Shown in pieces: positions 3,290 to 63,217 of a DNA stretch of 64,000 nucleotides. A program made the translations under genes and the position numbers. This DNA comes from a virus: the UHGV virus genome UHGV-1550212. One strand, written 5' to 3'. A model generated the notes under the pieces. The model saw only the letters and a list, made by a program, of their open reading frames with translations, was not told the origin of the DNA and did not search any database. The first letter of the stretch is position 1. Every line of letters starts with the position of its first letter.

Positions 3290-4585
3290 CTATTGTTTGC
3301 GTTGTAATGTCAGTAGTCCACAGTCATATACAGGTAAAAATCCTGCAGCATTGTAGTCTTCTGCATGTGATATGTCATTGTCTATAAAATGCTCACCAGT
3401 TCGCATATTATGCCAATGACATTGTATAACATTGCTTACTAATTTATAGTCATCTACATATTTTGTAGGGTCTTCTTTTGACAAGTCTATTGTAATAACG
3501 TCGGCAGTTTTCAATTGTTCTGTGTCATCGATGATTGACTTTAGCAATGCGACAATTGTATCAGCGTCATCCCAATCCCAAATTGTGACGCATCGATAGC
3601 CTTGCGACATTGCTTTGCAACATTTGTCTGCATGACTATTTGCATGTCTATGCCAATTTGCTGCAGAGCGGCCTGTCATATACTCAAAGCTATACGCACT
3701 ATTATGCGTAAACGTTGGATTGATTTCAATTGCTATGTTCTCATAGCGTAAGTCATATGTAAATGATTCTATTTGCGGTTGCTCAAACTCAAATTGAACG
3801 TTAAGCGATTCTAACAAGTATCGTTGCCACCATTGATTTTGCTTAGATATGATGTGACCTTGCGCAAGTTTACAATGTGTAGTCATGCAATAATATGGCA
3901 CACCATAACGCATCATATTTGTACGTACAACTGCTTGTGTGCGTCGTTTTAAGTCACCGCCCCACTTGTTGCCATACCGTTCAAGCTTTGTTTGCGTTGC
4001 CAGTTGTATATTCACACATCCATTTGCTTTGCCATATCGTTCAAGTTTGACTTGCGTAATTTTGTCCATAGGCCCAAATGCATTACCAAATTGTGCAATC
4101 TTTGTAGCTTTCATTTTGTCAATATTGCCAACACCTTTGCTGCCAAATCGAACAAGCTTAGTGTCGCCAACTTTGCATTTAACATCATGCAATTGTGATA
4201 TGAATTCTACACCGTATTTGAGCAAGTTATTGATGCGACCATTATAACGCTGTTTAATGATGCCATGCGATGTTTTGCGTGGTGCATAACGAACAAATGG
4301 TGTATTAGCAAGTTCAGCATCTCGCAATTCTTCAAGTTCTTTTATTCGAGCTGCATGTTCAGATGCGTTATCATATTGCAACGCGCCAGCATGACGTTCA
4401 TATGGCAATCTTCCATGCTTACGTATGAAAGCAATTTTGTTTGCATATTGCACACGTATCTTACTATGTGTAGATACTCTTGCGCTTAATTTTGCATATG
4501 GCGTTTCTGCAATCAATTTATCACGTTCAGCTTCAAGTTCTTTTATTCGAGCTTCAAGAGCATCACCAGTTAGTCGTTCAGCCAT
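3290..4585 (-). CDS. Homing-endonuclease-like protein, paralog 1 of 5 (coiled-coil N-module, (K/E)RYGxxxG repeats, Vsr/DUF559-like C-terminal nuclease domain)
   Basis: Start placed at MAERLTGDALEARIKELEAERDK by alignment with the paralog at 16845-17876. Repeats LVRFGSKGVGN / IAQFGNAFGP / LERYGKANG / LERYGNKWGG; C-terminal IEINPTFTHN ... GYRCVTIWDWDD ... GFLPVYDCG. The N-module is duplicated in this copy. Confidence 0.55.
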   Translation of the reverse strand: MAERLTGDALEARIKELEAERDKLIAETPYAKLSARVSTHSKIRVQYANKIAFIRKHGRLPYERHAGALQYDNASEHAARIKELEELRDAELANTPFVRYAPRKTSHGIIKQRYNGRINNLLKYGVEFISQLHDVKCKVGDTKLVRFGSKGVGNIDKMKATKIAQFGNAFGPMDKITQVKLERYGKANGCVNIQLATQTKLERYGNKWGGDLKRRTQAVVRTNMMRYGVPYYCMTTHCKLAQGHIISKQNQWWQRYLLESLNVQFEFEQPQIESFTYDLRYENIAIEINPTFTHNSAYSFEYMTGRSAANWHRHANSHADKCCKAMSQGYRCVTIWDWDDADTIVALLKSIIDDTEQLKTADVITIDLSKEDPTKYVDDYKLVSNVIQCHWHNMRTGEHFIDNDISHAEDYNAAGFLPVYDCGLLTLQRKQ

Positions 4586-4652
4586 TGTGCATGAATGTTC
4601 AATATGTAAATTCACTATATGTACATATAACACGAATATTCAAGTTAGATGC

Positions 4653-13213: not shown

Positions 13214-14557
13214 TCAGAATTGAAACATGTTGTTGATAAACGTATCGCCAAACTGCGCATCTGCAGCTTTTGACGTTATGTCATACGTTGCTGCATTGAT
13301 GCCGAGTGCAGTTATTGTTGATTGCGCATCTACAAGTTCATACACTTTGCAGCTTGGCTTTGTAATGTCTGTAAACGACATTGTGTACATGAAGTTTTCA
13401 AAGATATGTCTTGGTACTTCACGTGCATTCAAACATGCAAGTTGTCTATTTTCTGCAAATCGCGCCTTGAGCCATTCAAAGTCATCTGCAGGTACTGAGT
13501 CAACATTCATGAATGTCTTATATGCTGCAGTCAAAAACATTGCAATGACTTCGTCATCATACAAATCTTCACCAAGCATATATCGCATGCCAGGTTCCAA
13601 CTGTTTTGCATTGTCAGTTTCAATACCAAGAGACTTCAATGCATCGTAGATTTGGCCTACAGATAAATGCGACCAATTGTTGCCACGTTTCTTGAGCTTG
13701 CCAAACAATTCTGGGATGTTGTCACCAGCATCACCAAGCACAATCTTGTAAAACAAGAAACTTGGCACATGTTCATGAATCTCTGCATCAACATACTCAA
13801 GCAATGCTGCATATGGGTTGTCAAGAATGCGTGTTTTAACTTGAGCACCAGCAAAGCTGTCGAAGATGCTGCCGCCGACATTCTGCGACTTTTCACCAGC
13901 AAGTTCTTTGATGTGTTCAAGCACAAACTTGTCGCCCATCAGTACTCGAGACTTCTGCCACCCATTTGCTTTGCAGCCATTTTTGATGATTGCATATGCT
14001 GAACATGCGCCAGTGTATGTGTCAACACAAACACATTGAGTCAAGTCTTTGTCAGTGCCTTGATACAACACATTGCGGCCTTTTGACGTTGCATATCTGC
14101 TAAGCATGAAGATGACATCATCAGCTTCTGCTTCAGAAAGCTTAATGTGACGAATGCCATGCACTTCTTGCATCAACTTCAACCAGTCAAAGTATACACC
14201 ATAAACTTTGAGCCAGTTGATTGTCTGGTCATATGTTCGAGTGCCTTTGTAACCAGCATCTTCACCTTGTTCAAAGCCCTCTCTTGTCAAGTATTGATGC
14301 TTTGAGCGCCACAAATTCGACTTTTTGTCATCGACCGCAATGATGACATCATCAACAACATCTTCAAGTCTACGAAGCTCATTACAAAGGTCGAGCGTTA
14401 ACTTGGATATCAAAGACAGTCTTGATGCATTCTCATTCTTTTCGAATGACAAGTCTGTGCCTGATTTTGCTAATACTGGCACTCTGCTCTTCAACCACCA
14501 GCTTCCATCAATTACGTAGATGAACTTGTGATTATGAGTATTGTCAAGCTTTGTCAT
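13214..14557 (-). CDS. 5'-3' exonuclease / flap endonuclease (T4 RNase H-like)
   Basis: FIYVIDGSWW near N-terminus; SEAEADDVIFMLSRY ... GTDKDLTQC resembles T4 RNase H EADDHIAVL ... DGDFTQL; helix-hairpin-helix-like GDAGDNIP. Confidence 0.65.
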   Translation of the reverse strand: MTKLDNTHNHKFIYVIDGSWWLKSRVPVLAKSGTDLSFEKNENASRLSLISKLTLDLCNELRRLEDVVDDVIIAVDDKKSNLWRSKHQYLTREGFEQGEDAGYKGTRTYDQTINWLKVYGVYFDWLKLMQEVHGIRHIKLSEAEADDVIFMLSRYATSKGRNVLYQGTDKDLTQCVCVDTYTGACSAYAIIKNGCKANGWQKSRVLMGDKFVLEHIKELAGEKSQNVGGSIFDSFAGAQVKTRILDNPYAALLEYVDAEIHEHVPSFLFYKIVLGDAGDNIPELFGKLKKRGNNWSHLSVGQIYDALKSLGIETDNAKQLEPGMRYMLGEDLYDDEVIAMFLTAAYKTFMNVDSVPADDFEWLKARFAENRQLACLNAREVPRHIFENFMYTMSFTDITKPSCKVYELVDAQSTITALGINAATYDITSKAADAQFGDTFINNMFQF

Positions 14558-14805
14558 TGTCTGAATGCTTTTGCAATTGCTGATGTTGAGAGCATTGGCA
14601 CACTACCATTTTTGAAGCGAGGCTTTTTGTTTGACAACGACCACTTTTGCTTATGCCACTTTGAGCAGTTTGTGCCACGATTTGTTACATCTGCGCCGGA
14701 CCTTGAGCACTTGAGTCGGAAATCTTGTGCAGATGTGCAGTGCTTCTTTATTGAATGCTGACAATTATAGCAGCATTTATCTTGTGGTGTCACTGGATAT
14801 CTCAT
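14554..14805 (-). CDS. Hypothetical Cys-rich small protein
   Basis: ORF 14554..14913 trimmed to internal Met MRYPVTPQ (ATG 14805) to remove overlap with 14807..15274. Confidence 0.35.
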   Translation of the reverse strand: MRYPVTPQDKCCYNCQHSIKKHCTSAQDFRLKCSRSGADVTNRGTNCSKWHKQKWSLSNKKPRFKNGSVPMLSTSAIAKAFRQ

Positions 14806-14806
14806 G

Positions 14807-15274
14807 TCATTCAATGATAAGCGTATGACCAACTTCTTTCGCAAATGACACAATGCAGCCAAACAATTGCGGGTCACACCAAGGCTTGATGAACTGCTGC
14901 CACCAGTGAACATCAGATGACACCATCATTTCTTTGACAAGGTCTTCCTTTTCCCTGTCAAGATATGCAATATCACCCAATGCAAACATTGACTTCAAGA
15001 TGTTATCATCACTCATGTCAAACTTGCCAAGCCCTTGTTCGTCAACTTTTCGTGCAACTTTTATTGCATCAGGCAGCTTGCATGCCCCATTTGCGCATAA
15101 ACATGCTGCAAGAATTACAAATGCAGGCTTCTTATCCTGTGCAAGTCTGTATGCCCAATTGCGTGTTGCAGGAAAGTTTGGTACCCTGATGTCTACACCT
15201 TGAGGCAGATTTGATTCTTTAACTGCTTTGAGCTTGGCATCACTGCCAACCATGCCCATCTTTATTTGTGTCAT
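14807..15274 (-). CDS. Hypothetical protein (155 aa)
   Basis: ORF; no confident motif. Confidence 0.5.
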   Translation of the reverse strand: MTQIKMGMVGSDAKLKAVKESNLPQGVDIRVPNFPATRNWAYRLAQDKKPAFVILAACLCANGACKLPDAIKVARKVDEQGLGKFDMSDDNILKSMFALGDIAYLDREKEDLVKEMMVSSDVHWWQQFIKPWCDPQLFGCIVSFAKEVGHTLIIE

Positions 15275-15401
15275 ATATCAATCTTGGTCAAGAAATTGTT
15301 CTTCGTCATTTGACTGTTTCTTTGTCGACTCATCGACATTGTCTGCATCAAGCCATTTGTCATCTTGCTTGACTGTTCCAGTATCTGGTGCGTTCATATT
15401 G

Positions 15402-15797
15402 TCATCGGTTCTTTGAAAATGAAACTTGTGTTGATTGCTGTGGTCGTATATCGACAAACACTGAATCTACTGCGTCAAACTTAAGTGTCGCAAGTGAATC
15501 AATTGTCTGTCTTGCTTTTTGCAACTTGCGTGCTTTGATGCCTGATACTGTTGCAGACTTTTCAAGCAGATATGCATCACGAGGCGTCCAGTAACGAGCT
15601 TGCCAACGCATATGCATAGAGTCAACAATCAGATTTTCTGCTGCAGCGTCAATAATTGCCGCAGTTGATTGCTGAGTTGCATCAAGTCGTTGCTGCAACA
15701 CTGCTAATTGTTTTGTGTGCTGTTGCTGATGTTTGAATACTATGCTGATTGCTCCAAATAAGAGAAACCATGCAATAAACTGCAAAAATGACTTCAT
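15402..15797 (-). CDS. Hypothetical membrane-anchored protein (N-terminal hydrophobic helix)
   Basis: MKSFLQFIAWFLLFGAISIVF then Gln-rich coiled region; directly downstream of the clamp-loader gene. Confidence 0.45.
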   Translation of the reverse strand: MKSFLQFIAWFLLFGAISIVFKHQQQHTKQLAVLQQRLDATQQSTAAIIDAAAENLIVDSMHMRWQARYWTPRDAYLLEKSATVSGIKARKLQKARQTIDSLATLKFDAVDSVFVDIRPQQSTQVSFSKNR

Positions 15798-16801
15798 GAT
15801 TGCTGCACGAATTTTGAGAGCTCGAATGATAATGCGAGCATTGTTATGAATTGGTCAATTGATTGTTTCGACTCTACACCGTATTTGTGAGCTGCAATGA
15901 CAATGTCTCCAAGTCGTGCAACAAAACCGGGTGTGTTCTTTGAGAGCTTTGCATAGCACCAATTTGCAAAGTCAGTTGAGAGAGCATTGATGACTTCGGT
16001 TTCACGACCTTTGTATTGTGACAGTGTTTTGTAAAATTCACGTGGGTCTTTGCATGCAACAATGAAATCATACAGTTCTTCAAACTTTGCTGACATGCCC
16101 TTTGTGACATGCTCAAGCGTTATATGACGCTCGCCTTGATTGAAGACAAAGTAGCAAATGTTCAGAATTTTGCGGAAGTCTGGGTAGTTATCTTGAATTA
16201 GCTTGATGAGCGCTTCTTTTTCAATTGTGCATTCATTTTCCTTCAAGATATTGTAGACGCGAACCATGCATTTCTTCATCAACTGTTCTGCGACATCATC
16301 AGAAAAGTCGAATGATAGCATTTTGAGACGAGATTGAGCAATTGATGCATCAATGCGGTCTGGATAGTTGCAAGTTGCAATGAAAAACGCGATGCCTGCA
16401 AACTCTTCAATGGTGCCTCTTAAAGCCATCTGACTTTGCACAGATAAAAAATCCATTTCATCAAGCAGCACAACCTTTACGCCACTTGACGACAATGACA
16501 TATGCTGACAGAATTCTGAAATTGTGTTGCGAACTGTGTCAATGCCAGAATTCTTTGAGCAGTTAATTTGCAAAATTGAACGCCTATCAGTCCACTTCAA
16601 TGCCAATGCTCTTGCTGCGGTTGTTTTTCCACTTCCTGGTGCTCCTGCGAACAAATAATTTTGCGGCTGACCATTAAATGCTGCAGCATAATCATCAGGC
16701 ACAATTAACTCTTCGACTTTTGTTGGCCTGTAGCGTTCTAACCAAGTTTTATCTTTAAGGGATGCCATTTGTTGTTTGTTGTGATATGTGATATGATGCA
16801 A
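15794..16801 (-). CDS. Sliding-clamp loader subunit (T4 gp44 / RFC-like AAA+ ATPase)
   Basis: WLERYRPTKVEEL, P-loop AGAPGSGKTTAARALA, Walker B VVLLDEMDFLS, and NYPDFRKILN matching T4 gp44 NFPDFRKTIG. Confidence 0.85.
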   Translation of the reverse strand: MHHITYHNKQQMASLKDKTWLERYRPTKVEELIVPDDYAAAFNGQPQNYLFAGAPGSGKTTAARALALKWTDRRSILQINCSKNSGIDTVRNTISEFCQHMSLSSSGVKVVLLDEMDFLSVQSQMALRGTIEEFAGIAFFIATCNYPDRIDASIAQSRLKMLSFDFSDDVAEQLMKKCMVRVYNILKENECTIEKEALIKLIQDNYPDFRKILNICYFVFNQGERHITLEHVTKGMSAKFEELYDFIVACKDPREFYKTLSQYKGRETEVINALSTDFANWCYAKLSKNTPGFVARLGDIVIAAHKYGVESKQSIDQFITMLALSFELSKFVQQS

Positions 16802-16825
16802 AATGCATATTCATATTGTATATGA

Positions 16826-16856
16826 ATATGATACAACAAACGTGTCAATTTTGCAC
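16826..16856 (-). promoter_or_regulatory. Promoter-like motif (sense GTGCAAAATTGACACGTTTGTTGTATCATA)
   Basis: Recurrent motif ~25 nt upstream of the clamp-loader start. Confidence 0.45.
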
Positions 16857-17876
16857 AGCATGACCGCAATCGTACACAGGCAAAAAGCCTGCGTCAAGCA
16901 TCTCTTGTGTATCTTGTCCACAATCTTTAACATATTGTCGTGTTTTGAAATTATGCCAATGCTTATGAATTGTTGACTTGTCATCTGACAGCTGTGGATT
17001 GAGCGCGAAGTCAGTCGAGTCTACTGGTTCACCTGCAAGATGCTTTCTAATGGCATCAATGACTTCATTGTCATCCATCCATTCGAATATTGTAATGCAA
17101 GTGTAGCCATGCTTGAGAGCAAGCTGAGTTTTGTTGAAGTGATAGTCGAATGCAAGTGGATGATTATGCGTTGATTTGCCCATTGCATATGCAAATCCAT
17201 ATGCTGCATTGTGTGAAAACGTTGGGTTAATTTCAATGAGCAATTTGCAATGTTCATTGCTGTAGTTCAAATCAAATGAAAATCTATGCAATGAAATTTC
17301 ATCATAGCCACAATTGATGCAAAGTTCTTGCTGCAGTTTATCATGCCAATATTTGTTTATCGCTGAAATTGGGCGACCATTTGCATCTCTGCATCTCTTT
17401 GTCATGCAAAACCATGGCACACCATATCGTTGCAGCGTTGTTGCATTGATTTTTTGTTTAGGCCCAAATGCATTGCCATACAAGCGTTGTTTTGTTTCAA
17501 GCATTTTGTTAATGTTGCTTAGAGAGTCACCCCACTTTGCTCGTTTTGTTTCAATTGATTTTGCGACGTTGCCCCATGCATTGCCGTAGCGCTCTAAATT
17601 TGTTTGTCGTTGTTTAGCGACATTGCCCATGCCATTGCCATATTTTGCACGTTTTGATGCAACCATTTTCGCAGCAACATCTTTGCATTGATTGCTATGT
17701 TCTACACCATATTTGTGCAAACATGCTATTTTTCGATTGTACTTTGTTTTAATTGCGCCATGCGATGTTTTACGTGGCGCATATCTCACAAATGGCGTTT
17801 CTGCAAGCAATTTGTCTCTTTCCTCTTCAAGTTCTTTTATGCGAGCTTCAAGAGCTTCTCCTGTCAATTTTTCCAT
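16845..17876 (-). CDS. Homing-endonuclease-like protein, paralog 2 of 5
   Basis: MEKLTGEALEARIKELEEERDKLLAETPFVRYAPRKTSHG; repeats KYGNGMGN / ERYGNAWGN / LYGNAFGP / LQRYGVPW; C-terminal LLIEINPTFSHN ... GYTCITIFEWMDD ... GFLPVYDCG. Confidence 0.6.
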   Translation of the reverse strand: MEKLTGEALEARIKELEEERDKLLAETPFVRYAPRKTSHGAIKTKYNRKIACLHKYGVEHSNQCKDVAAKMVASKRAKYGNGMGNVAKQRQTNLERYGNAWGNVAKSIETKRAKWGDSLSNINKMLETKQRLYGNAFGPKQKINATTLQRYGVPWFCMTKRCRDANGRPISAINKYWHDKLQQELCINCGYDEISLHRFSFDLNYSNEHCKLLIEINPTFSHNAAYGFAYAMGKSTHNHPLAFDYHFNKTQLALKHGYTCITIFEWMDDNEVIDAIRKHLAGEPVDSTDFALNPQLSDDKSTIHKHWHNFKTRQYVKDCGQDTQEMLDAGFLPVYDCGHAVQN

Positions 17877-30858: not shown

Positions 30859-31356
30859 TCATTCGATGTTACCAGATAATATCCGAATGGCATCCAATGC
30901 ATTTTCTCGTATTAAGCCAAACTTACCTATAACTTGAACAAAATGTTTGTCATTTTCAAATGTTGAGTCGTCAAGAATGACATATTGTTTGATGTTATGT
31001 TTATCAACAAGCGCAGGCACTGCAGCAAATCTGTCATAAAAGCCCTCAGCATAAATTGATGGCAACAAATAGCCCGGCATATTGCGCTTAAGCCACATTG
31101 TCTTGCAGTCATCAAGAATAGCCCAACTACTTATCAAGCAAATTGCGCCAACATCTGACATCTGACAAATGTATCTCAACCAGCCAACACAACGTTCGTC
31201 AAATAATTGACCAAACTCATCTCTCGACTGCACATCCATGTTTGCACGATGTTTTGACATGTGCAACATATTGAGATTATCTTGGCTATTCAAAACGCCA
31301 TCAATATCCAAGAAAATTACTTTGTCAGGCCAAATCACTTTGCTTGCTGCGTTCAT
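30859..31356 (-). CDS. HAD-superfamily hydrolase (possible 5'-nucleotidase-type phosphatase)
   Basis: HAD motif I VIFLDIDGVLNS and later ILDDS; 165 aa. Confidence 0.45.
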   Translation of the reverse strand: MNAASKVIWPDKVIFLDIDGVLNSQDNLNMLHMSKHRANMDVQSRDEFGQLFDERCVGWLRYICQMSDVGAICLISSWAILDDCKTMWLKRNMPGYLLPSIYAEGFYDRFAAVPALVDKHNIKQYVILDDSTFENDKHFVQVIGKFGLIRENALDAIRILSGNIE

Positions 31357-32200
31357 AACGATGCTTTATTATGTCTTCTATTGTTAGATTGAGCGCAGGC
31401 CACGTGTCAAACACTTTTTGTAATTGCTCATCTGACTTATTAAGAAGCTTCTTATATGTTGTGCTCAATGATTGATAATGAGCGTCAAGAGCTTTGCTGA
31501 TGTGCGCAAGTGGTATTTGCAAATGCACAATACAATGCAGCACAAATGCTTGTTTGCGAAGTCTTTGAACGCCACCATCCAAACGCCAAATTTGCAGCAT
31601 ATTGCATTTTAACGCATCTTCATACAATGACTGCACAACTTGTATGTTATGCTCTGCTGTAGTACGTCTGCTATCGCGTTTTGTTGCTGCAAGCGACCTG
31701 CGTGAATCTGGGCGTTGTCTTGTGTGCTTAATAGTCTGTGCTGTGACATCATTGATATGAATATGAGTTTTCTCAATGTCAATGAATTCAGTACGATGTT
31801 CTTTTGCTGCAGTTTTTCGTCTGCCAAGTACACGTTTGTCATATACTTGTTCTTGCAGTCGTTCAGACAACTCTGCTTGCAAATCTGCGACTTGTTTGCG
31901 CAATATTGCATTTTGCGCAGATTGTTGTGCTGCAATATCTGCAACAGACATAATGTCAAAGACTGTGTTGAGCTGCAGCCATACATTATATGCGCATTCT
32001 ACAATATGACGTTTGGCTGCATCAATTGTTGCAAATTGCTCACGAGTCTTAAATGCATCAAGCATTGTGCTTATGACATACGCATGCTCACGTTGAATTA
32101 TTGTGATATTGATGCCACCAATTGTTGCAGTCCATTGCATTGGCGCAGATAACTGCACATTGACAGATGCATCAATAGACTTGCGCAATGAATCAAACAT
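31325..32200 (-). CDS. Hypothetical protein with coiled-coil region (291 aa)
   Basis: ORF; its ATG (32200-32198) is preceded on the sense strand by the C-rich spacer CCCCCCCACCCCC. Confidence 0.5.
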   Translation of the reverse strand: MFDSLRKSIDASVNVQLSAPMQWTATIGGINITIIQREHAYVISTMLDAFKTREQFATIDAAKRHIVECAYNVWLQLNTVFDIMSVADIAAQQSAQNAILRKQVADLQAELSERLQEQVYDKRVLGRRKTAAKEHRTEFIDIEKTHIHINDVTAQTIKHTRQRPDSRRSLAATKRDSRRTTAEHNIQVVQSLYEDALKCNMLQIWRLDGGVQRLRKQAFVLHCIVHLQIPLAHISKALDAHYQSLSTTYKKLLNKSDEQLQKVFDTWPALNLTIEDIIKHRYERSKQSDLA

Positions 32201-32208
32201 GGTTGCTT

Positions 32209-32221
32209 GGGGGTGGGGGGG
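32209..32221. repeat. Homopolymeric G tract GGGGGTGGGGGGG in the 24-nt spacer between two minus-strand genes
   Basis: Plus strand ttgggggtgggggggtca; striking in AT-rich DNA. Confidence 0.8.
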
Positions 32222-32224
32222 TCA

Positions 32225-32734
32225 TCATAACATTATGAGTTGTTGACGTGCTTGCATCTGCTCAATGCAATCATCACCTGTTATGCACAAATACTGAGGC
32301 AACTTGTCAAGTGAAATGAGCGTGCAAATGTATGGGTCAAAGAACTTATTTGTTGATGCAAGCAAATCGTAAAATAGACATGCTTGTTCTGCATCAAGTC
32401 GAGTAACAACAAGTCTATTGTAGCCAGGCGCATCGAAACCACATTTAAGCAAATGTCTACCGACGCGTATGTCATTGCCCATTGTCAATGTTGCTACAAG
32501 CATGCTGTCACATTCTACTGCAGGTTCTGAGTAGTGCCAGTTAATTGATGCATACGCAGTTAACACATACATGCCAGCAGTGACGTCCCATTCAGACTCT
32601 GCAATAATTGCCCATGTGCGCTTACCATTGTGCTCAATTTCAACAAAATCACCCCTTGTATATGAATCTACAAGCTTTGCAGTTATCAGATACTGCAGTT
32701 GTTCTATGCTATTGTATTTGATGCAAGTTTTCAT
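32225..32734 (-). CDS. Hypothetical protein (169 aa)
   Basis: ORF ending with TGA immediately before the C-rich spacer. Confidence 0.5.
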   Translation of the reverse strand: MKTCIKYNSIEQLQYLITAKLVDSYTRGDFVEIEHNGKRTWAIIAESEWDVTAGMYVLTAYASINWHYSEPAVECDSMLVATLTMGNDIRVGRHLLKCGFDAPGYNRLVVTRLDAEQACLFYDLLASTNKFFDPYICTLISLDKLPQYLCITGDDCIEQMQARQQLIML

Positions 32735-37218: not shown

Positions 37219-37473
37219 CTAAAATGTTAACTGTAATGACTTGATATTGCTGCATTCGATTTTTAACATGGCCAACTTGTCATGTGCAGCCATTGCGTCA
37301 TATTTGATGTTTGCAATTTCGAGCTTTTGTGCAATTTTGTATGCAGTGGCAGCATCAGTAGATATGCAGATGCAATTGCCAATGACTATATTTGCTGCAT
37401 CTGTTATGTTAACTTTGCATGCATTATCATTGTTATCAATGACTTCGATGCATTTGATTGAGTTAAAGTCCAT
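37219..37473 (-). CDS. Hypothetical small protein (84 aa)
   Basis: ORF with promoter-like motif 37526-37554 upstream. Confidence 0.4.
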   Translation of the reverse strand: MDFNSIKCIEVIDNNDNACKVNITDAANIVIGNCICISTDAATAYKIAQKLEIANIKYDAMAAHDKLAMLKIECSNIKSLQLTF

Positions 37474-37525
37474 ATTGCAGAGGTTTAGTATATTTGACTC
37501 TATATTATTTATAGATTAATACTAC

Positions 37526-37554
37526 ACACTTGCAGATTTTGCACTTAATTGATA
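37526..37554 (-). promoter_or_regulatory. Promoter-like motif (sense GTGCAAAATCTGCAAGTGTGTAGTATTAAT)
   Basis: Recurrent motif in the divergent intergenic region. Confidence 0.4.
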
Positions 37555-37644
37555 AATAATTTGTAAACATTTTCACAAACTTTTAACAGCTCTTTCGCTT
37601 ATGAAAACTACTCAACTCTGGTTTGAACGCCAGCAGTCAATCGC

Positions 37645-37651
37645 GGGGGGG
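37645..37651. repeat. Homopolymeric G7 tract 27 nt upstream of the plus-strand gene at 37678
   Basis: caatcgcgggggggctcttc in an otherwise AT-rich intergenic region. Confidence 0.8.
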
Positions 37652-37677
37652 CTCTTCGTGCTCCTGATTACATAGAT

Positions 37678-38370
37678 GTGCGGTTTACGCTCGTAGATGA
37701 TATGAGCATACATTGTGCATATATGCCAAACATATATGTGTTTGCTGATGGCAATGAGTATGCAATATCTCCAATAGGTTCACAATCACTTGATTATGAC
37801 GGCTCATGTATTGTACGTATTACCAAGTCAGACTGGATTGAAATGTTTGGCGCTGGTGTTACACAAGGCAGACTTAAATTTGGCTATGGTACAAATGAGC
37901 TTGAATTTTGTGAATTGATAAGCACTGCAACTGCTGAAGTCAAATTCGTTATTGGTTATGAGCAAAACCAGTCTGTCACTGCAACATTTAGTGATTTGCT
38001 GCATAATCCACTTGTCGCAACAAACAACAATTCTGCACAAGCAACAATTACATATACATTTAGTCATGCGACATTTAGAACAGCAGCATTTACGATTATC
38101 GGTAATGTGACATTTATTCCAGGCGGTGATGTAAGTAAAACAGCTATAATTCTTGCGCCTAATTATAGTATAACAATTAAGTACACTACGTCATCAACGC
38201 CAAAACTATTTGAGCATTCAATGACATTTGAGCGTAACAATGAAATGCTTGAGTATGTTGGCACTGAAGTAGACAGACATGCGTATTGTCAAATGAGACG
38301 TAGAACTACGGGCTCAACTGTATATTGTCATGTGTATATTGATGATAGCATGCTTAATATGATGGATTGA
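37678..38370 (+). CDS. Hypothetical protein (230 aa), one of only two plus-strand genes
   Basis: ORF begins with GTG at 37678 (ATG alternative at 37702); followed by a strong hairpin. Confidence 0.5.
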   Translation: MRFTLVDDMSIHCAYMPNIYVFADGNEYAISPIGSQSLDYDGSCIVRITKSDWIEMFGAGVTQGRLKFGYGTNELEFCELISTATAEVKFVIGYEQNQSVTATFSDLLHNPLVATNNNSAQATITYTFSHATFRTAAFTIIGNVTFIPGGDVSKTAIILAPNYSITIKYTTSSTPKLFEHSMTFERNNEMLEYVGTEVDRHAYCQMRRRTTGSTVYCHVYIDDSMLNMMD

Positions 38371-38385
38371 TAGTTGTAATATTGC

Positions 38386-38430
38386 GCAAAAAGAAAGCCG
38401 AACTGAATTTCAGTTCGGCTTTCTTTTTGC
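38386..38430. terminator. Perfect 21-bp-stem hairpin with flanking A/T runs; bidirectional terminator between convergent genes
   Basis: gcaaaaagaaagccgaactga / att / tcagttcggctttctttttgc. Confidence 0.7.
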
Positions 38431-41766: not shown

Positions 41767-44700
41767 TCAATTACATGCTGAATGTCCGCAGTTGGTGCAT
41801 CGAACACAGCCATCAAACTTGACCATGTCACCGCCGCATTCAGGACACTTTGCATACATCTTTGAGCCATCTTGAATATGCAGTTTCAATGCGCGCCCAA
41901 TTGCTTTGCAGAATGTTCCGACAGATGCAAAGCTTTTTGCAGTTTGGTCGACAATTTCGCCAAGGTCAATGCCATTGCGAAGCATCGTTGAGTACAGTCG
42001 AGTAATTGTTTGCTGCTCGTCTGAACCAAGACGTTCTGAGATATTATCATAGTGCTGCAAGAATGACAAATTATCACCAAGCTTGTAGTGCTTCTTATCA
42101 GTCTTTGTGATTGTCGTTTGTTCAATGCCTTGCAACTTGTCGAATTCATCTTTGTCAAGTTCAAATGCAAAGATTTCATAAGGTCGACCGTCATCACAGC
42201 CTACAAGAATACACCACTTGCGCTTATACACTGACACGCAATACACTGCAGCAGGCAATACTGGTTTTCGTTTTGAGCGATGACCAGATTGCAAGATGTG
42301 CGACTTGTCTTTTGACTGCTTGTCATCTTTTACGAGAACACCTGCACGTGAGCCATCTCGATAAATTGTGCAGCCTTTGCAGCCAGATTTCCATGCAGTC
42401 AGATAAATTTCACGAACAAGCTCTTTTGTTGCAGAGTTTGGAATGTTGACCGTTACAGAAATTGACGAGTCAATGTATTTTTGCAATGCACCTTGCAATT
42501 TCACCTTGCCAATCCAGTCAACATCTTCAGTAGTTGCCTTGTAGTATGGTGATTGAATAAGCAATTCATCAATGACTGCTTGCGGAGCATTTGACAACCA
42601 AGCTTTGATGCGAGACATTTCTGCTTCTGACCATTCAATGCCAGTATCTTTGACAAGAGTAAATTTGCCATCGCCAAGCTGCACTCGTTTACAAATCCAC
42701 TGCATCAACGGATAATGAACTACAGCGTATTCAATGAACTTGTCACCAGTAGTCTCATCAATGAAGTTGATGTCGGCCTCATTATCAACTGCAGTTGGCT
42801 TACGACGACGTTTATGTAGTGGCATAAATACGGGCTCAATACCAGACGTTGTCTGAGTCATCAAAGCTGTAGTGCCTGTTGGTGCAATTGTGGTCGTGTT
42901 AATGTTTCGACGGCCAAATTGCTGATAAGTTTTGATGTGCTCATCATCAATCAGTTCAGATAGCATACGCTGGATGAACTTTGATTGCACATCTGTGTCA
43001 TAGTCAAATATTGCAAATGAGCCACGAATCTTTGCCAAGTCAATTGACGCTTCATAAGTCGCCTTTACAAGCCATTGTTGCATAGTGACTGCGAAGTCAA
43101 TTGACTCCTGCGAGCCATAACGCAAGCCAAGCATCGCCATTGCATCGCCAAGCGCAAGGAAGCCCATGCCATATCGACGAGTGTTTGTCAGTTTATCATA
43201 AACTTTGTGCCACAAGTCAAGTTCAGTCTTTTTGATGTCAAAGTCTTCTTTATCTGACCGAACCTTTGCAATGATTCGTTGCACTGCTTCAATTTCAAGC
43301 TGCACAAGGTCATCCATGATGACTGCACAGTCATATGTATCTTTGTAGAATGTCTCAAAGTCAAATGATGCATCAGCAGTCCAAGGATTAAGCACATATG
43401 CAGTCAAATTGCGATGCGACAAAATGCAGCTTGCATATGCAGCGAGAGGCTGTTCACCGCAATTTAGTGTATTGACTACTTGCTTGTCATTGACAGCAAT
43501 AAAGAAATTGTGGAAGTCTTCTACTGTGCCATTGTACACATCTGCTTTGTTCATGTGACGTGTTGCAACGACTTTGACAATTGCATCACCAGTAGTGTCA
43601 ATGTCTGCATATTTGCTGCAGTCACCTAACGCTGCGCAAGCATCACAGCAATATGCTTGTTCACGATTGTCATAAGAAACTTCGAATTCTTTACCACAGC
43701 ACTCGCATTGTTTGATAACTGTGTTTCGTTCTGTTTTTACAAGCTCGTCAGTCTTCAATGCAATTGATAGCTTATCTGCGCTTGGCATATCAATTGCCCA
43801 CAATGAGTCATTTGTTGCAAGGTCAATTGCATTCTTGAAATCGCCATTAGCAAGCCTGAACTCATGATTTGCTGTGCAATTGATGACATGGCCGTCATCA
43901 AGCACAATTTGAATGATTTGCGCATTATGTGCAGTCAATCTGGGTCGACGCATTGTGCGCACAACGAGCTTGCCATTAGAGTCAAGACAATATACTGGAA
44001 TGTCTTCACCACTATCAGCAAGCTCTTTGAATGTCTTCAAACCTGAGCCATCAGCAACAAGTACTTTTGTGTCACCTGTGAAGCATGGATTTGTTGAGCG
44101 CTCTTCATACATTTTGCCATATGCTTTCGAGTTCGACTCTTCCATGATACGGTCCCAGAAGAACACGCCGGGTTCTGCAGATGCCCATACGTTATCAACA
44201 ATTTTGTCAAACAATGCTTTTGCATCTGATGTCTTATGCAGCTCTTGGCCATTAGAGCCACGCCAAACATGCTCAAACTGTTGTTCTGCAAGCACTGCAC
44301 GCATAAATGCATCAGTAAGCTTGATTGAAATGTTTGCGCCTGTGATTTTCGTCAAGTCCTTTTTTGCATCAATGAACTTATCTGCGTCAGGATGCTCAAT
44401 TGACAATGACAACATCAATGCGCCACGCCTGCCATTTTGTGCAACTTCTTTTGTTGATGTTGAAAAACGTTCCATAAATGACACTACACCAGAAGTTGTA
44501 ATAGCACTGTTATGCACTTCTACGTCTTCTGGACGAATGTGCGACAAATCATGACCAACGCCACCACGACGCTTCATCAACTGAACTTGCTCTTCATCTG
44601 TTTTGAAGATGCCGCCATATGAATCTGCGTCATTGCCAATTACATAGCAATTTGACATTGACGTGTAACCGCCAAGACCAATACCAGCCATTGGAGAACC

Positions 44701-44988
44701 ACCAAGCACAAACCGCTTAAAAGGCTCAAGTAAATATGCAAGTCGTTCTTTTGACAATACACGTTTGCCTGTCTGTTCTTCAAATTGTGATTCGATGCGG
44801 TCAAATTCATTGACCCAGCGCTCATGCATATCAGACAATGAGTGTTCATACAAATTGTCTTTGTCATGATGCAAGTATTTTGACATGCATATGTCAGCAG
44901 CCATTGAATCGCCTGTAAATTCATGCGTCAGTGTAGTGTGCACTTCAGCATATTCAGGCGACCCAATTTGAATGGGATGTTTTGTCAT
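41767..44988 (-). CDS. nrdJ: Ribonucleotide reductase, class II-like (NrdJ-type) catalytic chain, interrupted by an intein
   Basis: RRGALMLSLSIEHPDADKFIDAK signature; catalytic motif split as ...ERSTNP | intein | CGEQPLAAY, giving NPCGEQPL after excision; C-terminal zinc ribbon CPECGG ... CVRCTNCGHSAC. Start at MTKHPIQ (ATG 44988). Confidence 0.75.
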   Translation of the reverse strand: MTKHPIQIGSPEYAEVHTTLTHEFTGDSMAADICMSKYLHHDKDNLYEHSLSDMHERWVNEFDRIESQFEEQTGKRVLSKERLAYLLEPFKRFVLGGSPMAGIGLGGYTSMSNCYVIGNDADSYGGIFKTDEEQVQLMKRRGGVGHDLSHIRPEDVEVHNSAITTSGVVSFMERFSTSTKEVAQNGRRGALMLSLSIEHPDADKFIDAKKDLTKITGANISIKLTDAFMRAVLAEQQFEHVWRGSNGQELHKTSDAKALFDKIVDNVWASAEPGVFFWDRIMEESNSKAYGKMYEERSTNPCFTGDTKVLVADGSGLKTFKELADSGEDIPVYCLDSNGKLVVRTMRRPRLTAHNAQIIQIVLDDGHVINCTANHEFRLANGDFKNAIDLATNDSLWAIDMPSADKLSIALKTDELVKTERNTVIKQCECCGKEFEVSYDNREQAYCCDACAALGDCSKYADIDTTGDAIVKVVATRHMNKADVYNGTVEDFHNFFIAVNDKQVVNTLNCGEQPLAAYASCILSHRNLTAYVLNPWTADASFDFETFYKDTYDCAVIMDDLVQLEIEAVQRIIAKVRSDKEDFDIKKTELDLWHKVYDKLTNTRRYGMGFLALGDAMAMLGLRYGSQESIDFAVTMQQWLVKATYEASIDLAKIRGSFAIFDYDTDVQSKFIQRMLSELIDDEHIKTYQQFGRRNINTTTIAPTGTTALMTQTTSGIEPVFMPLHKRRRKPTAVDNEADINFIDETTGDKFIEYAVVHYPLMQWICKRVQLGDGKFTLVKDTGIEWSEAEMSRIKAWLSNAPQAVIDELLIQSPYYKATTEDVDWIGKVKLQGALQKYIDSSISVTVNIPNSATKELVREIYLTAWKSGCKGCTIYRDGSRAGVLVKDDKQSKDKSHILQSGHRSKRKPVLPAAVYCVSVYKRKWCILVGCDDGRPYEIFAFELDKDEFDKLQGIEQTTITKTDKKHYKLGDNLSFLQHYDNISERLGSDEQQTITRLYSTMLRNGIDLGEIVDQTAKSFASVGTFCKAIGRALKLHIQDGSKMYAKCPECGGDMVKFDGCVRCTNCGHSACN
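43462..44085 (-). mobile_element. Intein (208 aa) inserted at the catalytic Cys of the reductase
   Basis: Starts CFTGDTKVLV (block A), block B TANHEF, block F DVYNGTVEDFHNFFIAV, ends ...VVNTLN followed by Cys +1; middle has a small Cys cluster (CECCGK ... CCDAC ... C), no LAGLIDADG motif seen. Confidence 0.65.
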
Positions 44989-45029
44989 TGTAACAGTGCA
45001 TTTAAGTGTTTTAACTGTTTTATGTATAA

Positions 45030-45057
45030 ATTGTACAACAATGGGCAAAATTTTGCA
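45030..45057 (-). promoter_or_regulatory. Promoter-like motif (sense TGATGCAAAATTTTGCCCATTGTTGTACAAT)
   Basis: About 40 nt upstream of the reductase ATG; its TGCAAA element lies inside the left arm of the hairpin at 45055-45108. Confidence 0.45.
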
Positions 45058-45752: not shown

Positions 45753-45797
45753 TGTAGTAGAGGTTAAAATATATTAATATATAATAATTATACTACA

Positions 45798-52558: not shown

Positions 52559-52595
52559 TGTAGTAGAGGTTTGTTAATTTATTATTTATAGATAT

Positions 52596-54897: not shown

Positions 54898-55470
54898 TTA
54901 AAATTTGGATAGACTCGTAGTATCAAGCGATGCAATTGAATCAATGCGCAAAGAATCTGCTATAGGTGCGCAATCATCAATTGGGTGACTTGCAGGCTTA
55001 ACTTTGAGCATATACATTCTGCAGTTGCCAATATCTATAAGGGAACCAGAACGTGTCATATAATCACAGCCCAAAATGCCAACGACTTCATGACCAAGTG
55101 CTTTGCTAAGCTGAACTAAAATAGGCGAAATGTCATCAATAAACATGTCCAGCTCTACAGAGCCATTTGCGATAGTAATGTCTGCATCTATTGCATGAGA
55201 TACTTGAAGAGCCCCTGTGACATATGATAGTCGCTTAACTGAACGCTCTTTGCCAACCATGTCATGAGTAGCAACAAATGTGCTATCAATCAATGACAAT
55301 GACGCGCCAGTATCAAGCAAAAGCCATGCATCGACACCATTGACATTTGCATGTACAAATGGCAGGCTCTTCAAAACAATCGGTGACTGTGATTGCTGCA
55401 ATGCTTCATTGCACATTGTCAGCGTCATAATCGCAAGTAGCGATATAAGAAACAATTTGAATGCTTTCAT
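54898..55470 (-). CDS. Secreted or lipid-anchored retropepsin-like aspartic protease
   Basis: N-terminal signal-like MKAFKLFLISLLAIMTLTMC followed by the aspartyl-protease motif AWLLLDTGASLSLID. Confidence 0.55.
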   Translation of the reverse strand: MKAFKLFLISLLAIMTLTMCNEALQQSQSPIVLKSLPFVHANVNGVDAWLLLDTGASLSLIDSTFVATHDMVGKERSVKRLSYVTGALQVSHAIDADITIANGSVELDMFIDDISPILVQLSKALGHEVVGILGCDYMTRSGSLIDIGNCRMYMLKVKPASHPIDDCAPIADSLRIDSIASLDTTSLSKF

Positions 55471-57482: not shown

Positions 57483-58565
57483 TCATTGTTGTTTATGCCA
57501 GCCATATGATGCCTGACCAGCATCATACACTTCTACGAAGCCATGGTCGTACATAAAATCTTCATTACGAGTGCCCTTGCCCCCATTAGTGCCAAGAATA
57601 CGGTCTGCGCCATGCATAAGCAGCATATTATTTGTGACATGTTGCTTTGTCAGCATATTGAACCAGTGTTTGCTATATGACAAGCCAAGACCATCAAAGC
57701 CCAGCTTTGTGTACACACCACCGTCAAACTTGCTTAAATCACAATATGATAACACAGATTCAGGGTCATATGTCTTGATAAAGTGCTTAAAGATTCGTTC
57801 AGCACCACCAACAACTTTGGTTGCTGCACAAAGACGTAGCAATTCATATTGATAGCGCTTATTGTATCGTGGACGACCAAATGTCATAAGTTGATGAATG
57901 ACATAACCACCAAGCAACTCAAGTGGATGACCTTCAATCAACGCAAGATTGATAAAATTGCCTGAGCACTTGCCTTGCAAATGATGTTCAATCAAAAATT
58001 GATTTGCAGTATACTTGTCAATTTCAACAACTTTAAGCTTGCGAGCATATACAATCTTTGATTTGTCTACGATTTGATGCTTGATGTGATTGATAACTTT
58101 CTTGGCGTCATCCCAGTCCCACACATGAATGCAATGAAAGCCTGCTGATTTGGCGATGTCTGTTTTCTTTGCATGAATATCACAAGGCAAATGCGAATCT
58201 TTTGCATCATGCATAAACAGATGTTCAAATGAATGTGTGCTGTTATGTGAAAATGCAGGATTGATGTTAATGACAATATTGTCATGTCGAAAATCGAAGA
58301 CTTCATCGCCAATGACAAAGTTGCGCTCAAAATTTATACCGACATGTTTGAGTAACACTTGATGCCACACATCTTTATAGGCTGATTCAAGCTTGCTTAG
58401 CTCATCACAGTTTGCAATGTTTTTGTAACGTTGAATAGCAGCATCAAAGTCAAGATTGACTTCAGCGTAGTCTGCATTTTTATCGTAGTGAAATTTTGAG
58501 CTCATGTGTATAATTTTGTATGAGATTATTGTACAACATGCAAATGCATGTTGCATTTGATGCAA
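57483..58565 (-). CDS. Homing-endonuclease-like protein, paralog 3 of 5 (nuclease-like domain N-terminal, different downstream module)
   Basis: DNIVININPAFSHN ... GFHCIHVWDWDD near the N-terminus; C-terminal GFVEVYDAG shared with the other paralogs; middle region with ANQFLIEHHLQG. Confidence 0.55.
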   Translation of the reverse strand: MHQMQHAFACCTIISYKIIHMSSKFHYDKNADYAEVNLDFDAAIQRYKNIANCDELSKLESAYKDVWHQVLLKHVGINFERNFVIGDEVFDFRHDNIVININPAFSHNSTHSFEHLFMHDAKDSHLPCDIHAKKTDIAKSAGFHCIHVWDWDDAKKVINHIKHQIVDKSKIVYARKLKVVEIDKYTANQFLIEHHLQGKCSGNFINLALIEGHPLELLGGYVIHQLMTFGRPRYNKRYQYELLRLCAATKVVGGAERIFKHFIKTYDPESVLSYCDLSKFDGGVYTKLGFDGLGLSYSKHWFNMLTKQHVTNNMLLMHGADRILGTNGGKGTRNEDFMYDHGFVEVYDAGQASYGWHKQQ

Positions 58566-61825: not shown

Positions 61826-63217
61826 TCATTTTTCAATCTTTTTGAGCAATGCATGACCACAATCATAGACTTCGACGAAGCCTGACGCAATCATTTGTTG
61901 CCTATCAAACCCATTGTCAAGTAGATGTTCCCATGTCTTTGTATTGTGCCAATGCAATTGAATTGATGATTTATCTGTACTAAGCTGCGGATTTTTTGAA
62001 AAGTCTGCACAGTCAATTTTGTCACCGTTAAGATGCTTACGAATGCATTCAATGACAGTGTCGTGGTCATCCCAGTCCCATATTGTTATGCATACATAGC
62101 CATGTTGTAATGCAATTTGTGTCTTGTCAAAATGACTATCATGTCTCTTTGGCCTATTACGCTTTGTGCGCTTAGTAATATATGCATATGAGTATGTTGA
62201 GTTATGCGAAAATGTTGGATTCACTTCAATCAACAATTTGCAATGTTCATTTTCATAATGCAAGTCATATGAAAAGCCAAGTAGCTTAACATCGTCATAA
62301 CTGCAATCAATGTTAAGCTCTTGTTGCAACTTATCATGCCAAAATTGATTTGGCTTAGATATTATGTTGCCTTGACTGTTTATGCAGTTAGAAGTCATAC
62401 ATGACCATGGCACGCCATAACGCTCAATGTTTGTTTTGTTTGCACTTGCTTGAATTTTTGACAATGGGCCCCATGGATGACCATACTTTGCACGCTTGAC
62501 ATCTGCACCACGTTTAGCAACTTCACGATAATCGCCATAACGCTCTTTTCTTGTAGCAAGCATTTTTGCAATATTGCCCGCGCCACGAGAGCCATATCTA
62601 AGCTCTTTAGTCTTTTGAGCTTTGGCGTAATCACCACAAAATGCATTGCCATATCGAGCAATTTTTGTTGCTTTCATTTTTTCAATGTTGCCTGCACCAG
62701 CATTGCCATAACGTTCAAGTTTTGTTTGCTTGGACAATTCAACATTGCCAAATTTGTTGCCATAACGCACTAATTTTGTTTCTTGTGAACGTTGACGTAT
62801 TTCTTGCACTTGTGCACAGTATTCTACGCCATAGCGTTTTAACATTGTTATTCGTTGATTATATGCACGTTTAATAGGTGCATGCGATGTTCGTTTTGGC
62901 CCATATTTAACAAACTCAGTAGATGCAAGTAATTCATCACGCTCACGTTCAAGTTCTGCAATTCGTTGTTGTATATGGACATCATACACAGGCTGCTCAG
63001 AAATGTCATCAATAGCTGTCGTTTCTAATTTAGCAAGTTTGCGTTTAAGAGCTTTTGTTGTTTGCGTGCAGCTCATTTTTATCAATGCATGTGCATGTCT
63101 GCCACAGTCAAGTACAATGTTAGGCTCATTTGCAAGGCGTTCATCACGTTTACATTCTGCAGCATGTATTGCATCAATAAGTTGTCGTCTCTTTACATTA
63201 TATTCGTCTTGTGTCAT
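61826..63217 (-). CDS. Homing-endonuclease-like protein, paralog 5 of 5
   Basis: IAELERERDELLASTEFVKYGPKRTSHAPIK; repeats VRYGNKFGN / ERYGNAGAGN / IARYGNAFCGD / LRYGSRGAGN / ERYGDY / AKYGHPWGP / ERYGVPW; LLIEVNPTFSHN ... GYVCITIWDWDD ... GFVEVYDCGH. Confidence 0.6.
   Translation of the reverse strand: MTQDEYNVKRRQLIDAIHAAECKRDERLANEPNIVLDCGRHAHALIKMSCTQTTKALKRKLAKLETTAIDDISEQPVYDVHIQQRIAELERERDELLASTEFVKYGPKRTSHAPIKRAYNQRITMLKRYGVEYCAQVQEIRQRSQETKLVRYGNKFGNVELSKQTKLERYGNAGAGNIEKMKATKIARYGNAFCGDYAKAQKTKELRYGSRGAGNIAKMLATRKERYGDYREVAKRGADVKRAKYGHPWGPLSKIQASANKTNIERYGVPWSCMTSNCINSQGNIISKPNQFWHDKLQQELNIDCSYDDVKLLGFSYDLHYENEHCKLLIEVNPTFSHNSTYSYAYITKRTKRNRPKRHDSHFDKTQIALQHGYVCITIWDWDDHDTVIECIRKHLNGDKIDCADFSKNPQLSTDKSSIQLHWHNTKTWEHLLDNGFDRQQMIASGFVEVYDCGHALLKKIEK

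Follow-up and report, generated by a model that had tools for sequence, protein, structure and literature searches.

The locus studied here raises the question of what a run of seven G residues does close to the start of a plus-strand gene in a phage genome that otherwise avoids such runs. In the window, i.e., the whole stretch of 64,000 nucleotides (64 kb) of viral DNA that was analyzed, GGGGGGG was confirmed at positions 37645-37651 of the plus strand, where the first-pass annotation had placed it. Only two G/C runs of six or more nucleotides are present in the entire window, at 37645-37651 and 32215-32221. Dinucleotide-preserving shuffles yielded an expectation of 0.08 G7 matches, and two matches were obtained in none of 100 shuffles, in agreement with the earlier view that a pair of such tracts is improbable by chance. 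Moreover, GGGG is 7-fold rarer than expected (13 observed vs 93 expected, 0.14x). Among the runs of five or more nucleotides in the window, A5, A6, T5, T6 and T7 occur 35, 7, 90, 14 and 1 times, and C5, G5 and G7 occur 2, 1 and 2 times, respectively. The run count above that of the shuffles and the scarcity of GGGG together place the G7 tract far beyond chance, and thus it is not a product of base composition.

With regard to the genome itself, the window encodes both topoisomerase II subunits, a clamp loader, an NAD ligase, an intein-containing RNR, the large terminase and the major capsid protein. The capsid protein is approximately 37% identical to those of Chryseobacterium phages MA9V-1/2, Sphingomonas phage PAU and Tenacibaculum phage PTm1, and also matches Prevotella megaphages. 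Start codons are preceded by A-rich sequence with no Shine-Dalgarno (SD) motif, related contigs of 175-181 kb come from human gut metagenomes, and a gene neighboring the locus carries a BACON domain in relatives. We infer a large lytic phage, probably of a gut Bacteroidota host. Several other features of the window were recorded. The large subunit of RNR, which carries the intein, is encoded at 41767-45048 on the minus strand (14070-17291 and 14170-18156 in the relatives L001 and L012), with lengths of 1093 aa in the window, 1073 aa in L001 and 1328 aa in L012, the last with an HNH domain. Homing-endonuclease-like ORFs were observed at 3290-4633, 57483-58565 and 61826-63217, and a 190-aa ORF at 54898-55470 (minus strand) matches the retroviral-type aspartyl protease domain PF13650 (E = 1.6e-6), an unusual find in a phage. 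The tetranucleotides GATC and CTAG occur only once and twice, respectively (231 expected for each), which suggests strong restriction-site avoidance. TGCA is 4.9-fold over-represented (1129 vs 231 expected), and TGCA, TTGC and GCAA are all enriched.

The gene behind the tract (37651-38370) is an isolated plus-strand unit inside a minus-strand block. The first-pass annotation had this gene start at GTG 37678, with the tract 27 nt away in a regulatory spacer. Three-frame translation and comparison with relatives revealed a different organization, whose features are given below; here, "cassette" refers to a block of approximately 70 nt (ATG, leader, Gn and CTCTTCGTG) that recurs before five types of gene body, designated A-E.

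37536..37600, plus strand: promoter-like AT-rich block and 5' leader (attttgcact..gataaataatttgtaaac..ttttcaca..ctctttcgctt), partly conserved in the alignment upstream of all five body types, in two subtypes
37601..37644, plus strand: start codon ATG 37601 with the leader-coding stretch MKTTQLWFERQQSI(A); this 5' half of the cassette does not vary and is the same before bodies A-E
37645..37651, plus strand: G7 homopolymer, the proposed hypermutable switch, at an out-of-frame (OFF) length here; G6-G9 in relatives
37652..37660, plus strand: invariant 3' end of the cassette, CTCTTCGTG, after which the bodies diverge
37601..37675, plus strand: ATG-frame product of the window's G7 allele, the 24-codon peptide MKTTQLWFERQQSIAGGLFVLLIT, with stop TAG at 37673-37675
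37651..38370, plus strand: body ORF of type A, which begins at the final G of the tract and runs for 239 codons (ALRAPDYIDVRF...) to a stop at 38368-38370
38386..38430, no strand: 21-bp perfect hairpin between the plus-strand gene and a convergent 1068-aa minus-strand gene; fold -35.6 kcal/mol, z = -7.6, as good in 0 of 200 shuffles

ATG 37601 opens a 15-codon leader, MKTTQLWFERQQSIA, which reads into the tract (44 nt downstream of this ATG) as GCG GGG GGG. The frame of the long ORF is one base off and is open back to 37627 (...NRGGALRAPDYIDVRF...), so the long ORF already contains the tract; in this body frame, the last G of the tract and CTCTTCGTG encode ALR. When tract length was changed in silico, one added G fused the leader and the body into a 256-aa ORF and removal of one G made the ATG 37601 frame stop after 21 codons, compared with 24 codons for G7 as it stands. 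The first ATG, GTG or TTG of the long ORF is GTG 37678, which reads GTA in L001 and thus is not a conserved start. The tract is located within coding sequence, 15 codons past a conserved ATG, rather than in a regulatory spacer, and the GTG start could not be upheld. The tract does lie upstream of that GTG, as had been described, and its end is 26 nt before it.

The conserved block upstream of the cassette is presumably a promoter. A sigma-70 scan of the block performed no better than on shuffles, and a Bacteroidota-type -33/-7 promoter would be only one reading of it, the match to TAnnTTTG being inexact. The cassette region has no meaningful match in Rfam and its RNA fold is no better than those of shuffles (z = -0.84); riboswitch, attenuator and frameshift-stimulator ideas were dropped because of this non-significant fold. 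The hairpin at 38386-38430 is likely a bidirectional terminator. A separate motif, (T)AAACCTCT(A/G)C(TAC)A(AT), was observed directly before the ATG of three minus-strand genes (37474-37490, 45753-45770 and 52559-52575), one of which (37219-37473) is divergent from the cassette. The three genes probably share it as the promoter or leader of a different expression class.

To find cassette copies, public collections were scanned with the 20-mer directly upstream of the tract. Three copies were present in one 175.6-kb viral contig, and further copies were found in metagenomes. In the alignment, the same block, from tttcgcttATG through the tract to CTCTTCGTG, heads bodies A-E, which have no detectable mutual similarity (BLASTP E > 0.04). 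The leader of type E is slightly different (MKTTQLWFERQHSIAAGG). A long ORF opens at the tract in every copy examined, and the sequences of the body types part 9 nt after it. Other searches added little: no INPHARED phage matched the locus in blastn, a scan of viral contigs seeded with the type A protein returned nothing, and a degenerate leader-pattern scan of IMG/VR retrieved one contig only, which was already known.

Several contigs (L002, L003, L018, L022, L023 and L025) end or start within the cassette. These breaks fit the behavior of assemblers at a multi-copy repeat of approximately 70-130 nt. As a consequence, public annotations systematically cut short the genes that carry the cassette or give them a wrong start, and the called length varies with the tract (215-224, 251 or 256 aa).

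Additional polyG tracts were also observed in relatives. A sixth cassette family with a diverged leader, ATGAAAACTCCACAATTTTGGTTTGAGCGTCAACAAGGGCTAGC-Gn (peptide MKTPQFWFERQQGLAGG), is present at 266(+) in L006, 8186(-) in L013 and 3098(+) in L026; its tract is G7 or G8, and in none of these three copies is the 157-aa body behind it (GSKLVYLQLVIGDASLY...) in frame with the ATG. Two more polyG tracts just past an ATG, ATGCAAATCCCTCGTAACT-G10 and ATGACATTCAAATTGAA(C/T)T-G7/G8, were detected at 6314(-) and 6554(+) in L013, 4987(+) and 4688(-) in L026, and 1349(-) in L006, and both read ...N-W-G-G.... It seems that this phage lineage uses polyG switches near gene starts widely. In L014, the type E body (minus strand) is broken by another frameshift approximately 90 codons past the cassette (...DDPEWAH*, then an overlapping 164-aa ORF), a break through which protein P0031 of L026 reads (...DDPEWGALDYGT...). 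No homopolymer of six or more nucleotides was found at the junction, and the split is either a decaying gene or a second switch.

A total of 37 cassette copies were then compared for tract length, all allele lengths being taken from consensus assemblies. They comprise G6 (10 copies), G7 (20 copies), G8 (four copies) and G9 (one copy), along with one copy each of GGGTGGG and the interrupted 8-nt allele GGGGGTGG. The first eleven copies were G6, G7, G9 or GGGTGGG, none of them in frame with the ATG. The idea that in-frame lengths are avoided, which arose at that point, was rejected when G8 alleles were found. G8 was absent from the ten copies found irrespective of state, and among the loci retrieved by way of type C, a single type E tract is G8.

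Fusion products of just the lengths predicted from the frames were found by listing the members of protein clusters. Two type A proteins of 256 aa (P0025 and P0026) and one type C protein of 259 aa (P0019) start with MKTTQLWFERQQSIAGGALR, and their DNA carries G8 (L012, and L013 with two cassettes, both G8). L012 is 97.3% identical to the window over the locus, has G8 and encodes the 256-aa P0025; the type A body is fused to the leader only at this length. Likewise, L023 has G8 at type E and encodes the 108-aa P0029, with the leader at its N terminus. The allele GGGGGTGG is also in frame, giving a 233-aa type B protein, and would in effect be locked ON; GGGTGGG in L005 has an OFF length and would in effect be locked OFF.

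That the tract changes readily could be seen from nearly identical genomes. Type C loci of different gut samples aligned with 0 mismatches and one gap over 3,544-3,654 nt, and the sole gap is the tract (G7 in L014-L016, G6 in L019-L021). Two gaps separate L015 from L020, one at the type C tract and the other at the type E tract on the opposite strand. In contigs of the same strain, type E is G6, G7 or G8 irrespective of type C. The G7 type C protein P0008 is present on 52 contigs and the identical-bodied G6 protein P0009 on 6. In the window's own strain, G7 was found in 3 of 3 assemblies; these match at 100% identity across 6.6 and 3.75 kb and might come from a single sample. The tract had been proposed to vary in length, and this proved to be the case: G6, G7, G8 and G9 occur in relatives, with a single-G difference and 0 mismatches over 3,654 nt. 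The tract mutates much faster than its flanks.

We consider it probable that the locus is a simple-sequence contingency locus in which the G7 tract serves as the switch, by translational frameshift, and that the window carries the OFF allele. The cassette stands before at least five unrelated genes per lineage, plus a sixth with a diverged leader, and, with the same good confidence, each gene would be set on or off independently by its own tract length. The tract is a repeat of at least 6-7 units that lies within an ORF and mutates faster than its flanks, as is characteristic of contingency loci. The cassette would provide, in order, the promoter-like block, the ATG, the 15-codon leader, the G run read as Gly-Gly and then CTCTTCGTG. 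Run length would be altered by slipped-strand mispairing in phage DNA replication, as the allele pattern suggests. At G8 (3n+2), the leader and the body would be in frame and a full leader-bearing protein, 256 aa for the window gene, would be made, presumably the ON state. At G7, the ATG frame would end after 24 codons and the body would be OFF; alternatively, weak leaderless expression of the body at most might occur from GTG 37678 or ATG 37702. At G6 or G9, the ATG frame would end after approximately 21 codons and a TTG within the cassette would enter the frame, a state that is probably OFF too.

The role of this TTG differs among alleles. A TAA in that frame just before the tract blocks it in L002 and L011, and TTG was rejected as a general start of the G6 state for this reason. 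The protein P0004 has been called from TTG in the G6 state, and such a start may be used in this state for some alleles. Natural alleles occur in all three phases. Since the tracts vary independently, one genome can yield a combinatorial population of expression states, from which the population would gain by bet-hedging. The avoidance of G runs elsewhere and the fixed site of the tract, 15 codons into the cassette, argue for a selected switch.

Comparison of orthologues revealed how selection acts on both sides of the tract. Between the tract and the first internal ATG, each of the six substitutions falls on a third codon position of the body frame and is synonymous (GTG>GTA, ACG>ACA, ATC>ATT, GGC>GGT, GGT>GGC and TAT>TAC). 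In type C, there is no ATG, GTG or TTG for 25 codons past the tract. Together with the GTA of L001, these observations indicate that translation of the body must come from the cassette. With respect to the leader, the main and diverged cassettes differ in 8 of 16 codons, including four synonymous changes (GAA/GAG, CGC/CGT and CAG/CAA twice) and four conservative ones (T/P, L/F, S/G and I/L). The other two frames contain stops, and 8 of 10 and 9 of 10 differing codons are changed in them. As judged from these substitution patterns, the leader is a selected peptide, and purifying selection acts on the body frame from the tract on. In-frame alleles form a small minority of the consensus genomes, yet the bodies are intact and under purifying selection. 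Such selection may be upheld by rare ON subpopulations that are strongly selected at times, or by low-level slippage on G7 templates.

Purifying selection on bodies whose consensus alleles are mostly out of frame also speaks for programmed recoding, an alternative in which G7 would be the designed state, the fusion would be made constitutively at a low level and the DNA length variants would be noise. The route could be -1 ribosomal frameshifting on G_GGG_GGG or stuttering of RNA polymerase along the G run. Of the 37 copies, 20 have G7, the commonest length, and the ATG frame reads G GGG GGG, which formally matches the heptamer X_XXY_YYZ and at which a -1 shift gives the fusion. However, no conserved downstream stimulator is present, as the body types diverge 9 nt past the tract and the fold is non-significant (z = -0.84), and an SD-type stimulator is unlikely given that the phage does not use SD sequences. 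Programmed sites are normally fixed in length, whereas G6, G8 and G9 were found here in identical or near-identical genomes. G6 alleles would require the opposite shift, and in-frame G8 and locked GGGGGTGG alleles exist. The lack of a stimulator, the unconserved length and the opposite shift needed for G6 make recoding unlikely as the sole mechanism, and we regard this alternative as improbable. Recoding could operate alongside DNA-level switching, in which case it would account for purifying selection on OFF alleles.

The reading of the first-pass annotation, in which the tract is a promoter or 5'-UTR element whose length would set the level of transcription or initiation for a gene starting at GTG 37678, is very unlikely. 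It is true that the G7 allele has no in-frame canonical start between the tract and GTG 37678, and that TAG 37673-37675 ends 2 nt before this GTG, where reinitiation could occur. Nevertheless, the tract is situated downstream of the conserved ATG and the promoter-like block, not between promoter elements, and GTG 37678 is GTA in L001. The synonymous evolution of the codons from the tract to the internal starts, the startless stretch of 25 codons in type C, the leader-body fusions encoded by G8 alleles and the conservation of the leader at the amino-acid level also stand against a spacer. It is scarcely credible that the length differences are homopolymer sequencing or assembly errors around a tract that is truly always in frame: homopolymers are error-prone on some platforms and contigs frequently break at the cassette (the six listed above), but the multi-copy repeat accounts for the breaks, identical lengths were recovered repeatedly in many independent assemblies and with different assemblers (52 contigs for P0008 and 6 for P0009), two tracts vary independently within the same contigs, and the interrupted 7- and 8-nt alleles give OFF and ON frames with no pure homopolymer.

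The other variable run of the window resembles the cassette tract only superficially. The first-pass annotation had located this run at 32209; it actually occupies 32215-32221 and reads C7AC5 on the minus (coding) strand. It is contained in a 24-nt spacer (32201-32224) between the TGATGA stop of the gene at 32225-32734 and ATG 32200 of the gene at 31325-32200, and these two genes share a reading frame. This spacer is variable among relatives, with C8 in L001 and CCACCCAC5 in L012. Hence, of the common rationale offered for both tracts, the part that stands is that both are variable G/C runs; the 32215 run differs in being a stop-to-start spacer, at which no cassette and no leader were found. 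The downstream gene has been called 8 codons longer in L012 (299 vs 291 aa), where an upstream ATG that overlaps the stop has entered the frame.

We also examined what the switched proteins might do. Searches of Pfam and PHROGs gave nothing above threshold for body types A, B, C and E, and type D has a sub-threshold CorA-like copper-binding match (25.1 bits vs a cutoff of 27). An exhaustive phmmer search (1.8 billion representatives) returned close relatives only, plus a repeat-driven match to SpaA/prealbumin repeats. There is a weak hint that the N-terminal 60 or so residues of body A may form a beta-sandwich domain. Two AlphaFold runs gave pLDDT values of 36.5 (body A) and 35.5, which are too low for a fold search. 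A double-glycine secretion leader (...IAGG motif) was considered for the leader and rejected: the match is only partial, and the Gly-Gly is dictated by the G run.

A possible precedent for the leader is the capsid targeting sequence (CTS) MKTYQEFIAE, which is common to diverse small internal proteins of phage T4 (PMC8442874, PMC3012670). Like the CTS, the leader is short, N-terminal and common to proteins that are diverse and otherwise unrelated, here five bodies. The CTS and the leader MKTTQLWFER have M1, K2, T3 and Q5 in common (4 of 10 positions), and in both a hydrophobic pair follows Q5 and then a Glu, at position 10 in the CTS vs position 9 in the leader. The cleavage motif of prohead proteases is (L/I)-x-E; the Glu of the leader is preceded by W-F, not by the L/I-x of this motif. 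No T4-type prohead protease was recognized in the ten ORFs scanned in the window, which covers about a third of the genome. Furthermore, the CTS genes of T4 have no homopolymer switch, cleavage by the prohead protease and packaging have been demonstrated for T4 whereas the leader is known from sequence alone, and the present phage is only distantly T4-like, its capsid protein being nearest to those of the PAU, PTm1 and MA9V phages. A relationship of the leader to the T4 CTS is therefore a lead rather than a demonstrated membership.

With low confidence, the leader may be a targeting or attachment peptide common to interchangeable accessory proteins. A more specific proposal, which is speculative and rather unlikely, is that it targets proteins to the virion (by T4 CTS-like capsid targeting or by attachment), and that at least five independent polyG cassettes would randomly vary which accessory proteins, such as anti-defense or adhesion factors, are carried or injected by each progeny particle. 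Under this proposal, the identity of the cassettes would be kept by gene conversion and new bodies would be plugged in by recombination. If true, this would constitute a phase-variable virion cargo system.

The locus can be compared with several known systems. In the opa genes of Neisseria, a phase-variable multigene family, CTCTT repeats are located in the signal-peptide coding sequence. The present genes resemble opa in that several loci have a common 5' end holding the repeat, switch independently by frameshift and would be expressed combinatorially. The opa genes have homologous bodies, a pentamer repeat and a Sec signal peptide as leader, whereas the present system belongs to a virus and combines unrelated bodies with a mononucleotide run and a leader that does not resemble a signal peptide.

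Among phages, hypermutable polyG tracts have been described in receptor-binding protein genes of Campylobacter Fletchervirus phages (Sorensen et al. 2021, Cell Rep 35:109214, as relayed in PMC10877375 and PMC12633550). According to these accounts, the Fletchervirus tracts are of similar length (7-11 G) and lie within coding genes, with several tracts per genome, and their length changes frameshift the gene and give phenotypically mixed progeny; the frameshift is common to both systems. As relayed there, the Fletchervirus tracts differ from the present one in belonging to genes of known function and in that the host genome is itself rich in polyG contingency loci. The system described here, known from its sequence only, is distinguished from that description by a portable, sequence-identical ATG-leader-Gn cassette on unrelated genes in a gut Bacteroidota-type phage. 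In T2, T4, T6 and other coliphages, homopolymeric simple sequence repeats of at least 6 units in ORFs mutate reversibly by polymerase slippage, which has been interpreted as bet-hedging (Gomez, Barrick and Waters 2025 preprint, PMC12633550). A homopolymer of at least 6 in a phage ORF is common to those loci and the cassette. The coliphage loci are mostly polyA/T tracts scattered in ordinary genes of AT-rich genomes, and many may be incidental (PMC12633550); in contrast, G runs are avoided here (GGGG at 0.14x) and the tract has a fixed site in a dedicated cassette. The switching rate has been measured for coliphages (PMC12633550), whereas the present alleles are known from consensus assemblies. 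No description of a portable start-leader-polyG cassette in phages was found in the searchable literature. What is new here is thus the sequence-identical cassette on unrelated genes, phage polyG/polyA contingency loci as such being already known.

As far as the sources cited above relay it, contingency loci in phages have been recognized only recently, the polyG tracts of Campylobacter phages dating from 2021 and the general proposal from a 2025 preprint. The present locus provides natural, metagenome-level evidence from the human gut, in which identical genomes from different samples differ only in tract length. Gene callers start at internal ATGs or at TTG according to tract length, so that such switches are invisible in standard virome annotation. 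The cassette design would make any gene placed behind it phase-variable, in parallel with bacterial antigen families such as opa. If the bodies are host-range, adhesion or anti-defense factors, the system would account for the way in which a lytic phage of the gut insures itself against Bacteroidota hosts that are themselves phase-variable.
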